Shown here piece after piece: positions 30,772 to 35,327 of a DNA stretch of 64,000 nucleotides. Under the pieces are notes generated by a model. The model saw only the letters and a list, made by a program, of their open reading frames with translations. It made no database searches and had not been told where the DNA came from. The first letter of the stretch is position 1. Each line of letters begins with the position of its first letter. This DNA is from Bacteroidales bacterium H4 (GTDB lineage Bacteria; Bacillota; Clostridia; Lachnospirales; Lachnospiraceae): positions 7,150 through 71,149 of the forward strand of contig CAVJMX010000002.1 in the NCBI GenBank assembly GCA_963650795.1, read 5' to 3'. Made by a program: the position numbers and the translations under genes.

Positions 30772-31428
30772 ATGAAGTTAAAATATTATCTGCGCGGTCT
30801 CGGGATCGGAATGGCTGTAACGGCACTGATTTTAGGAATCAGTTTTTCCGGCAGACAGGGACAAGAGGCGCAGACACTGACAGATGAGCAGATCAGAGAG
30901 AGGGCTTCGGAACTGGAGATGGTGGACAGCAGCGAACTGACCCTGGCTGCACTCGCGAGTAGTGCGGCACAGACACCGGAAGCCACAATAGAGCCGGAAG
31001 CCGCAGCAGAGCCTGAAACAACGACAGAGCCTGAGGCAACCACAGAGTCGAAAATGGCGACAGAGCCTGAGGCAACTGCAGAGCCTGAAACAACGACAGA
31101 GCCTGAGGCAACCGCAGAGCCTGAAACAATGACAGAGCCTGAGGCAACCACAGAGCCGAAAATGACGACAGAGCCTGAGGCAACAGCAGAGCCTGAATTA
31201 ATCACAGCACCGGAACAGTCACAGACAACCATTACTATTAAGAAAGGATCCGATTCCGGAAGTGTCAGCAGAATGCTCTATGAGGCAGGTCTGGTGGAGA
31301 ATGCGAAAGCATTTGACAATTATTTATGTAATAACGGATACAGTCGCAGCATCAATCCCGGCATCTATGAAATAGCTCCCGGGACTTCGGAAGAAGAAAT
31401 TGCCAAAATAATCACAGGAAAACATTAA
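30772..31428 (+). CDS. Membrane-anchored protein with YceG/MltG N-terminal-like domain and repeat linker
   Basis: YYLRGLGIG TM; C-terminal ITIKKG...SRMLYEAGLV....FDNYL....INPGIYEI; no MltG catalytic domain. Confidence 0.75.
   Translation: MKLKYYLRGLGIGMAVTALILGISFSGRQGQEAQTLTDEQIRERASELEMVDSSELTLAALASSAAQTPEATIEPEAAAEPETTTEPEATTESKMATEPEATAEPETTTEPEATAEPETMTEPEATTEPKMTTEPEATAEPELITAPEQSQTTITIKKGSDSGSVSRMLYEAGLVENAKAFDNYLCNNGYSRSINPGIYEIAPGTSEEEIAKIITGKH
30991..31197 (+). repeat. About 11.5 tandem 18-bp repeats encoding EPE(A/T)T(T/A)
   Basis: GAGCCTGAGGCAACC / GAGCCTGAAACAACG units alternating. Confidence 0.92.
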
Positions 31429-33587: not shown

Positions 33588-33615
33588 AAAAGGCATGCGT
33601 GAGTATGCCTTTTTT
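33588..33615 (+). terminator. Intrinsic, likely bidirectional terminator after tsf
   Basis: AAAAGGCAT-N8-ATGCCTTTTTT. Confidence 0.85.
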
Positions 33616-33706
33616 ATATTGAAAGTTACGAAAGCATAGCCGCGCATAGAAAACAAGAAAGCCTGGGCGTGGACGCTTGAGCACAAATCCCAGGCTTATT
33701 CGATAC

Positions 33707-33902
33707 GCGGGGCGTAATCATCAATAATAGTCAATTAAGCCCCGGTGGTTTACGTTATGCGGGGCGTAATCATCAATAATAAGTCAATTAAGCCCCGGTG
33801 GTTTACGTTATGCGGGGCGTAATCATCAATAATAGTCAATCAAGCCCCGGTAGTCTTACATTACGCGGGGTGTAATCGTCAAATCTTGTGTGTAACGCCC
33901 CG
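33707..33902 (+). repeat. Tandem array A: three 52-53-bp units plus a diverged fourth
   Basis: GCGGGGCGTAATCATCAATAATAGTCAATTAAGCCCCGGTGGTTTACGTTAT; units start at 33707, 33759, 33812, 33865. Confidence 0.95.
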
Positions 33903-33914
33903 TACCTTGGTTTC

Positions 33915-34028
33915 AGGGTACAGAGGAGCTTGCTCCTGTCTCCTGCGCCCACGTTGAGGCGTAAGAAGGGTACAGAGAAGCTTGTCCTGTCTGCTGTGCC
34001 CACGTTGAGGCGAAAGAAAGGGCACAGG
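33915..34028 (+). repeat. Tandem array B: two 52-bp units plus the start of a third
   Basis: AGGGTACAGAG..GCTTG..CCTGTCT.CTG.GCCCACGTTGAGGCG.AAGA; units start at 33915, 33967, 34019. Confidence 0.9.
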
Positions 34029-34229
34029 CGGGCGCTCCACATTTATTGGCAGTTCTCCGCAATGAGCCACGCTATTCATAAGATTGTCAGCAAAAGGCGC
34101 TGCCAATCTTATTTCATATCGCGGCGTTCGCCGCATCACGGCATAAGTAAAGACAGCGATTTGTGCGCAAGCGCCCATCGCTGTCCTCACTATGCCTATG
34201 CGCGGCTCATTGCTCGCGTAACTTTCAAT

Positions 34230-35327
34230 TTATCGATAGAACTCCACAAGGGAATCCAGCTTTGCTGACATATTCATCATCATGGCATCCAACACAGTGA
34301 TGGCGGTCATGCATTCCATGACGACCACAGCTCTGGGGACGATGATGGGATCGTGGCGTCCGCGGATGGTCAGCTCGGTATTTTCTCCGGAGCGGTTCAC
34401 CGTCTGCTGGGGCTGGAAAATCGAAGGGGTCGGTTTTACATAGGCGCGGACAATGACAGGACTTCCGTCGCTCATACCGCCTAAAATACCGCCGGAATGA
34501 TTACTGACTTTCACAACTTTGCCGTTCTCCATGCGGAAAGGATCGTTGTTCTCACTGCCGGTATGGCGGGAAGCTTCGGCACCATCGCCGATCTCCACGG
34601 ATTTCACGGCACCGATGGACATAATGGCTTTCGCCAGGTTGGCATCCAGCTTCTCGAAGACCGGATCGCCGATACCTGCGGGAAGACCCTCCACGAGGCA
34701 TTCCATGCAGCCGCCGACGGAATCACAGACTTCTCTTGCCTGCTGCAGATAAGCACAGGCTTTTTCATCTGCTTCTGCATCCGGCATGGCAGTAATGGTG
34801 GAACGGGCAGTGCTTCGGTCAAATTTTGCAAAATCTATGTCTACGGGACCGATGGAACGGGTGTAGGCGAAGACGGTAATGCCCATCTGCTCTAAGATCT
34901 TCGCGGCAATCGCTCCGGCAGCGACGCGCCCGATAGTCTCACGACCTGAGGAACGTCCGCCACCCCGGTAATCCCGGAAACCGTATTTTGCATCAAAACA
35001 ATAATCCGCATGACCGGGGCGATAGTTCTCGGCAATCTCACTGTAATCGGCAGAGATCTGGGAAGTATTGCGCACCATCAGGGAGATAGGGGTACCGGTG
35101 GTCTTGCCCTCGAAGACGCCGGAGAGAATCTCCACCTGATCGGCTTCCTTGCGCTGGGTGGTGATGGCGCTGGTGCCGGGCTTGCGGCGGTCTAAATATT
35201 TCTGTATATCTTCTTCGGAGAGAGGAAGCCCGGCGGGACAGCCGTCTACGACGACACCTAATGCCTTTCCGTGGGATTCTCCCCAGGTAGTGATCTTGAA
35301 AATGTTACCGAATGATGAACCTGCCAT
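34230..35327 (-). CDS. aroC: Chorismate synthase
   Basis: TWGESHG, RPGHAD, GGRSSGRET, RGRHDP. Confidence 0.98.
   Translation of the reverse strand: MAGSSFGNIFKITTWGESHGKALGVVVDGCPAGLPLSEEDIQKYLDRRKPGTSAITTQRKEADQVEILSGVFEGKTTGTPISLMVRNTSQISADYSEIAENYRPGHADYCFDAKYGFRDYRGGGRSSGRETIGRVAAGAIAAKILEQMGITVFAYTRSIGPVDIDFAKFDRSTARSTITAMPDAEADEKACAYLQQAREVCDSVGGCMECLVEGLPAGIGDPVFEKLDANLAKAIMSIGAVKSVEIGDGAEASRHTGSENNDPFRMENGKVVKVSNHSGGILGGMSDGSPVIVRAYVKPTPSIFQPQQTVNRSGENTELTIRGRHDPIIVPRAVVVMECMTAITVLDAMMMNMSAKLDSLVEFYR

Follow-up and report, generated by a model that had tools for sequence, protein, structure and literature searches.

A mosaic non-coding repeat family of one gut Lachnospiraceae clade with a Clostridiales-1-like folded module and probable descent from IS66-type MITEs

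A hairpin-rich, non-coding element lies between the convergent genes tsf (EF-Ts) and aroC in the window, i.e. the whole 64,000-nt stretch of DNA that was analysed (assembly GCA_963650795.1, contig CAVJMX010000002.1). The original prediction proposed that its single-stranded structure is under selection, either as a structured RNA or as a DNA substrate of an HUH/RAYT-type enzyme, and that it is not a plain DDE-type MITE. This raises the question of what kind of element it is and in which state its fold acts. The best explanation, to which a probability of about 0.6 is assigned, is a mosaic non-coding repeat of one gut Lachnospiraceae clade that descends from an IS66-type MITE, exchanges its contents at fixed sites and is folded on one strand, more probably as DNA than as RNA.

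The element and its family

The element covers 614 bp (33617-34230) and is bounded by an imperfect terminal inverted repeat of ~33 bp. It had been placed at 33659-34213; this part is real, but the true extent is larger and the terminal inverted repeats had been overlooked. The left repeat (33617-33649, plus strand) contains the 5' arm of a module closing stem. The left 14-bp family end (33615-33628, plus strand) is a variant of the consensus and lies directly 3' of the tsf terminator. The latter, an intrinsic-terminator-like hairpin with a T run (33588-33615, plus strand), is located outside the element; it is absent from the terminator-scan list and was read from the sequence directly. The first three bases of the right 14-bp family end (34219-34232, minus strand) form the TAA stop codon of aroC (34230-34232). 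TA flanks the element on both sides (33615-33616 and 34231-34232).

The interior starts with a left hairpin (33659-33697, plus strand), a truncated module of stem type C with an apex that is partly broken in the window copy. It is followed by array A (33707-33903), which consists of four tandem hairpin units of 52-53 bp each and ranges from ~1 to 11 copies across family members, and by array B (33916-34027), two 52-bp units and a partial third, with a copy number that also differs between members. Half of a linker hairpin that is whole in other copies (34037-34058, minus strand) precedes module R (34059-34213, minus strand), a Clostridiales-1-like multi-hairpin fold homologous to the body of IS66-type MITEs in other members of the genus. 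Module R comprises the hairpins P2 (34140-34196), P3 (34116-34139) and P4 (34078-34112) within a closing stem (34200-34213/34059-34072). Elsewhere in the window, an 18-bp tandem repeat (30940-31227) is found within an ORF (30772-31428), where it encodes a Glu/Pro/Thr/Ala-rich linker.

The two hairpins quoted in the original prediction are exact, letter for letter (33661-33695 on the plus strand, 34152-34185 on the minus strand), and the 14-bp closing stem is present in the minus-strand fold of the right 155 nt. On either strand, the RNA fold of this segment (34059-34213) is much more stable than those of 200 dinucleotide shuffles (z -10.6 minus and -9.3 plus). With DNA parameters, the 139-nt core (34067-34205) reaches z values of -6.2 (minus) and -3.8 (plus). 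G-U pairs are enriched on the minus strand as claimed: its fold has 53 Watson-Crick and 7 G-U pairs, that of the plus strand a single G-U pair. Base shuffles reproduce the strand energy gap of module R in 24 of 200 cases, and the left hairpin alone has no strand preference (z -2.97 vs -2.91). The four-way junction of the proposed multibranch fold is not the sole fold, as RNAalifold prefers two domains for 15 copies. The G-CUUG-C loop is intact in the first unit of array B but not in the other units, and the left apex of the window copy, closed by a G.A pair, is not such a loop.

Family ends follow the inverted 14-bp consensus TAA[AC]T[TGA]GA[AG]AGTTA. Between 6 and 38 ends per genome are found in 18 of 269 genomes of the genus; six genomes have a single match and 245 have none. 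Seven single matches in 299 genomes from other genera of the same family correspond to the control level. Named records with a family end are Waltera, Acetatifactor and other Lachnospiraceae or Clostridia assemblies. One contig from a bin titled Odoribacter (L032) carries an element as well; its flanks are homologous to Lachnospiraceae loci and it is probably mis-binned. Plasmid sequences and viral contigs gave no family matches. Three GenBank entries labelled 'bacteriophage' matched, and the one inspected shares its flanks with chromosomal loci. A description of the family was not found in the open literature.

The 53 complete members range from 44 to 2049 bp. They are dispersed, multi-copy and non-coding, and combine exchangeable hairpin modules with tandem arrays in a mosaic. 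One shared apex is surrounded by six or more stem types, chimeras cross over within this apex, and broken or chimeric hairpins are found among the copies. Minimal forms are a 44-bp hairpin of two ends (L249), a 190-bp two-hairpin form (L231) and a 14-bp relic (L179). The relic lies between two convergent stop codons, both native TAA stops; it was considered as an empty recombinase target and is better read as the relic of a microhomology deletion. The largest member (L319:968-3020, 2049 bp) is flush with stop codons at both ends and carries a 416-codon ORF without matches in Pfam and NCBIfam searches; this cargo ORF was rejected as a transposase. In another genome, this site is occupied by a member of 346 bp. 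An IS200-like element is inserted within one member (L058:3690-4410), and the same cassette is uninterrupted in L099. At two loci of the source genome (G000; C25:29400-29510 and C10:31628-31681), a terminator-like hairpin of 52-56 bp is found where relatives carry a full element; that on C25 resembles a decayed family module.

Neighbouring ORFs are housekeeping genes, and in 64 of 81 neighbour clusters the nearest ORF is oriented towards the element. Stop codons of open frames of at least 60 codons coincide with 34 of 78 site-ends, which are not fully independent, vs 12% of non-coding TAA. Nuclease, transposase and reverse-transcriptase domains are found in 0 of 81 neighbouring ORFs, 15 of which have no Pfam match. 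In two tested genes, TAA is the native stop in element-free genomes. TA is present at both ends of 45 of 52 complete elements, and the G of a GTAA end at 40 of 99 family ends. None of the 53 complete elements reaches 6/8 matches over 8 bp as a target duplication, and nothing longer is found outside the ends.

Rfam motifs and the state of the fold

Rfam yields no match in the window at the gathering score. Module R aligns with the full model of Clostridiales-1 (RF01699) at 28.9 bits, below the 48-bit Rfam cut-off, and eight other copies of R score 24.8-36.8 bits, always on the inward strand. Reciprocally, a model of R finds the RF01699 site of locus L317 (43.2 bits, E 1.8e-7); among 30 RF01699 loci, eight of its nine best matches are the RF01699 sites on the annotated strand. 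Since a sequence-only profile of 30 RF01699 hits has no match on R, the evidence for the link comes from structure and the apex. R and Clostridiales-1 share the order of hairpins, a P2 apex with a 3' bulge and the strand, and their models match reciprocally; they differ in the low score (25-37 bits vs the 48-bit cut-off) and in the shortened P3 and P4 of R. R is classed as a diverged Clostridiales-1-like module below the Rfam threshold.

Rfam files RF01699 as an sRNA, whereas here mobile repeats with loops of DNA type have it as their body. In the source genome (G000; e.g. L288:1502-1695, C1:15778), canonical Clostridiales-1 scores 157 bits and is a 194-bp MITE with GATG-type inverted ends. 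The source genome has 25 near-full copies, 17 of them identical, and 18 of 19 complete canonical copies are flanked by AT-rich duplications of 7-8 bp. RF01699 exceeds the cut-off in 63 of 141 Lachnospiraceae genomes, with five tandem copies in L302. A search for an autonomous partner of the GATG-ended MITE returned none; 20 regions with unpaired ends are mostly truncated copies. At another locus (L361:1300-1510), a canonical MITE splits an IS200/IS605 tnpA frame and is flanked by a 7-bp duplication.

The second motif, TwoAYGGAY (RF01731), scores above the cut-off in other family members and is absent from the window copy. In genome G381, 16 of 18 hits lie inside family elements. Close pairs are divergent in seven of seven cases (three genomes), like most Pseudomonas TwoAYGGAY doublets described in the cited passages of a preprint (10.64898/2026.09.22.753630). 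Those passages do not report a Bacillota carrier of TwoAYGGAY with defined ends, which the present family has, and they contain a proposal of CsrA sites in the TwoAYGGAY loops. Both motifs were listed as probable RNAs, not cis-regulatory, in the relevant entries of Weinberg et al. 2010 (PMC2864571).

The loops of the fold were called by RNA energy rules and compared with DNA-stable classes, i.e. GNA triloops (from the cited part of PMC3201870) and four tetraloop classes (known from a reference title). With this procedure, 12 of the P3 loops of 13 R-like modules are formed and all 12 fit d(cGNABg), d(cGNNAg) or d(cGNAg), with no GNRA or UUCG loop among them. In 30 canonical RF01699 loci, 41 of the 61 loops besides the P2 apex are of DNA type, five are GNRA and none is UUCG; four are of DNA type on the opposite strand. 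Across all loops of the canonical loci L288-L317, which represent 30 genera, the DNA type accounts for 70 of 91 on the annotated strand and for 32 of 91 on the opposite one. The annotated strand has 38 DNA-only and no RNA-only loops, and all four GNA triloops occur. The apex gCTTGc suits DNA and RNA alike.

The alternative that survives best, although rather unlikely, accepts the same origin and holds that the fold is kept as RNA, as a 3' structure of the mRNA arriving from the neighbouring gene, in whose sense each end module reads, and that it alters the stability of this mRNA or ends transcription. The convergent orientation of the nearest ORFs and the ends flush with stop codons would fit this, as would the inward-strand G-U excess, which cannot separate RNA from DNA, and the G-CUUG-C loop, which is stable in RNA too. 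TwoAYGGAY modules would contribute CsrA-type sites at the proposed loop positions. However, tsf has its own terminator ahead of the left end, UUCG loops are absent and GNRA loops are merely a subset of the DNA-type loops. Moreover, unrelated ends carry the same fold, inserted in either orientation at many sites. A precedent for action on mRNAs is given by ERIC, Correia and BOX repeats in the cited sections of PMC2229807 and PMC3049150. The contigs of an RNA library (one run) are unstranded and uninformative on module transcripts. A stand-alone RNA gene is unsupported: promoter-like sites number 1 vs 1.1 in shuffles, and the element is multi-copy. Taken together, the fold somewhat more probably works as DNA; RNA is a tentative second choice, and a working state as neither is improbable.

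Probable ancestry and probable exchange of contents at fixed sites

In genus members without family ends, the covariance model of R finds MITEs of 162-188 bp (~185 bp), most of which start with GTAAC. R aligns collinearly with their bodies from end to end. Their 8-bp flanks match at 8/8 (L456, L457), 7/8 (L462), 6/8 (L459) and 1/8 positions (L441, L444), i.e. a duplication of at least 6/8 is seen in four of six homologous MITEs vs 0 of 53 present elements. The MITE end is identical in 11 of 12 bases to that of a 1812-bp single-ORF IS66 element in a carrier genome (L401), and a similar end with an 8-bp duplication is described for ISDge4 of the ISBst12 group in the relevant parts of PMC12898284 and PMC11946415. 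Module homologues sit in MITEs with the ends and duplications of a DDE-type system, which argues against the proposed HUH/RAYT association. An IS66 (ISBst12-group) MITE is the likely ancestor of the folded end module.

The present elements differ from such MITEs in GTAA ends and in the 8-bp duplication, and the present outer end agrees with true IS66 termini of these genomes in only 6-10 of 15 bases. A 12/14 end match at L475 was discarded, since it is not the terminus of that IS. Further differences from ISBst12-group MITEs are the remodelled 14-bp ends, the size range, the many exchangeable modules and the fixed sites with changing contents. By its present ends, the family is not a member of the IS66-type MITE group. 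R may be an old MITE body that is nested just inside new ends or that has acquired remodelled ends.

A quite improbable alternative is an IS630/Tc1-mariner-type MITE, similar to RUP, ERIC and Correia, that targets and duplicates TA, so that shared sites would be recurrent hot spots. TA at both ends and the inverted ends are in line with this, and TA-bounded bacterial MITEs are described in the cited part of PMC2229807. On the other hand, DDE_3 scores over the cut-off in 0 of 18 carrier genomes, a TA-only empty site was not found, TAA is a native stop in the two genes tested without the element, and relatives of the module have IS66-type ends.

Orthologous sites are common to several species and hold different cassettes. 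The aroC stop bears a family end in seven genomes with differing inner types; the tsf-aroC junction of L273 (genome G564) is element-free and has one shared hairpin terminator. Nine of 41 sites have several complete alleles, and eight of these nine differ in module content. Inversion of whole elements at a site was rejected, as alleles differ in content, not orientation. In G381, a single cassette is 98.5-100% identical at 10 sites; the flanks have a median identity of 87.9% to the source genome.

At 24 sites, the inner end family differs between alleles. Here, end position +3 agrees in 30 of 30 cases (expected 0.55), +5 in 24 of 30 and +8 in 15 of 30 (expected 0.44). Because +3 stays with the site while +8 does not, the switch point is placed inside the 14-bp end. 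Repeated insertion into targets that include +3 could leave the same pattern, with +3 being target-derived. More than one partner is found for 13 of 66 flank clusters. Two of these are artefacts of internal ends, and misassembly at repeats may explain some of the other flank swaps. Neither the loci nor the contigs of seven runs and one raw-read run yielded a clean empty site; all useful runs were contigs of relatives that covered at most 0.31 of the words. Overall, contents are likely exchanged between fixed chromosomal sites. The proposal that the element is not a plain MITE is thus borne out: present elements are mosaic, have no surviving duplication and swap their contents at fixed sites.

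Several known repeats resemble the family. BOX, BIME/ERIC and RUP are modular, folded and enriched at gene 3' ends, often supply a stop codon and vary in the number of inner units. BOX and RUP, in contrast, create duplications and have a single module order, and whole-cassette exchange within a 14-bp end at fixed sites is not described for any of these repeats in the sections cited (PMC3049150, PMC2229807). REP/REPIN-RAYT systems likewise form inverted hairpin pairs and tandem arrays, and their termini can supply stop codons (cited part of PMC3733652). Unlike them, the present family has no GTAG/CGTC foot at its ends, and a linked RAYT was not found. PMC3733652 does not mention 'Clostridi', and the accessible text of a 2024 MITE review (PMC10969869) mentions neither Clostridi, Lachnospir, mosaic nor gene conversion. 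New here are the exchange point at fixed sites, which maps within the 14-bp end, and the DNA-type signature of the loops.

Probable selection on the fold, search for a mobilising enzyme and proposed course of events

A covariance model was built from 15 copies of R. In these copies, double changes are found at 11 of 60 pairs, more than in all 500 shuffles and all slid registers, a count that is overstated because the copies are kin. All 11 pairs lie in P2 and P4; the closing stem and the third hairpin have none. In a set of six stem types plus six canonical loci, double changes affect 10 of 13 pairs, a count reached by 68 of 500 shuffles, and no shuffle of 500 reaches the cell count or the covariation score. 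Recent substitutions in 39 copies turned Watson-Crick pairs into G-U (13), A-C (7) or other mismatches (11). As these substitutions are weakly biased and broken or chimeric hairpins exist, the constraint on single copies is weak.

It is very improbable that the structure is under no selection at all, with template switching perfecting quasi-palindromes in a way that mimics compensation and strand-biased deamination producing the G-U excess. Perfected and chimeric broken hairpins both occur, and the strand energy gap that base shuffles can match and the weak bias of recent substitutions agree with it. Yet stems of unrelated sequence and 30 genera share the unpaired apex, the bulges, the internal loops and the loop classes, and palindrome repair by itself would remove wobbles without fixing loop classes. 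The fold is likely selected on one strand. The claim of selection on single-stranded structure stands to the extent of covarying stems around a shared apex, the G-U excess of the inward strand and the DNA-stable loop classes.

The search for a mobilising enzyme linked no HUH/Y1, nuclease or reverse-transcriptase gene to the family ends. Y1_Tnp is missing from the source draft genome (smallest contig 2 kb) and from four of five carriers drawn, all draft assemblies from which such contigs can drop out, and none of 30 Y1_Tnp loci of the genus lies beside a family end. Six RAYT-like proteins of Lachnospiraceae (L352, L354, L355, L356, L205, L206; frames of 256-305 codons) score below the family cut-off. 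Some of their genes lie beside a different palindromic repeat, and the canonical Clostridiales-1 relative does not flank them. A REPIN/RAYT- or IS200-like system, in which an HUH (Y1) nuclease would recognise the terminal hairpins in single-stranded DNA, is therefore hardly credible: the DNA-type loops, the inverted hairpin units, the missing target duplication and the occurrence of RAYT-like genes in the family Lachnospiraceae fit it, but the Y1 distribution (drafts, so not absence) and the neighbouring ORFs speak against it.

IS66 is present in 8 of 18 carriers with other ends, and DDE_3, IS66 and DDE_Tnp_1 loci of the draft genomes include no transposase with matching ends. RVT_1 gave one partial hit with no end nearby, and 12 inspected tyrosine-recombinase loci likewise have no family end nearby. 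A family of 193-aa tyrosine recombinases is found in 18 of 18 carriers and in 12 of 40 non-carriers; because its sequences are closely similar among carriers, which are not independent of each other, this family is no more than a candidate enzyme. At one locus (L496:167-745), its gene adjoins a flagellin gene. In pdif- and integron-like cassettes, a dedicated tyrosine recombinase acts at paired core sites. A further region (G000 C6:1-3500) encodes a tyrosine recombinase, a 542-aa ORF and a P-loop ORF that presumably resembles Zot, and is possibly a filamentous prophage.

In the preferred reading of descent from an IS66-type MITE, an ISBst12-type transposase would first have spread the ~185-bp MITE. 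Its ends would then have been remodelled in the carrier clade, with loss of the duplications, and would have settled on TAA codons. Occupied sites are proposed to persist because simple excision would strip the flanking genes of their stop codons. New cassettes would overwrite old ones by recombination resolved inside the 14-bp end, either by RecA anchored in a shared module together with end microhomology or by a dedicated enzyme, and arrays would be resized by slippage. Finally, the fold would aid the element while it is single-stranded during copying, e.g. by protecting or priming the displaced strand.

A bolder version of this scheme, itself unlikely, regards the 'Clostridiales-1 RNA' as a single-stranded DNA fold that protects or primes the copy-out of MITEs and is carried by MITEs of several end types. 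A host enzyme, possibly the small tyrosine recombinase of all carriers, would have turned the 14-bp ends into exchange sites at stop codons. Cassettes, occasionally with a cargo gene, would swap without an empty intermediate and rejoin chromosome segments, which would amount to a chromosomal cassette-exchange system built from MITE relics.

Clostridiales-1 and TwoAYGGAY, two orphan Rfam motifs of gut Clostridia, are linked to mobile repeats by this family. The loops of DNA-stable classes make the status of Clostridiales-1 as an RNA open to doubt, in a testable way. The repeats account for many assembly contig breaks in a common gut clade and mark rearrangement breakpoints between related species. 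Replacement seems to be their mode of change at the ~20 fixed sites that each genome has at gene ends. If an enzyme drives this exchange, it would represent a new recombination system; if none does, the family would still illustrate clearly how MITE relics evolve in concert.
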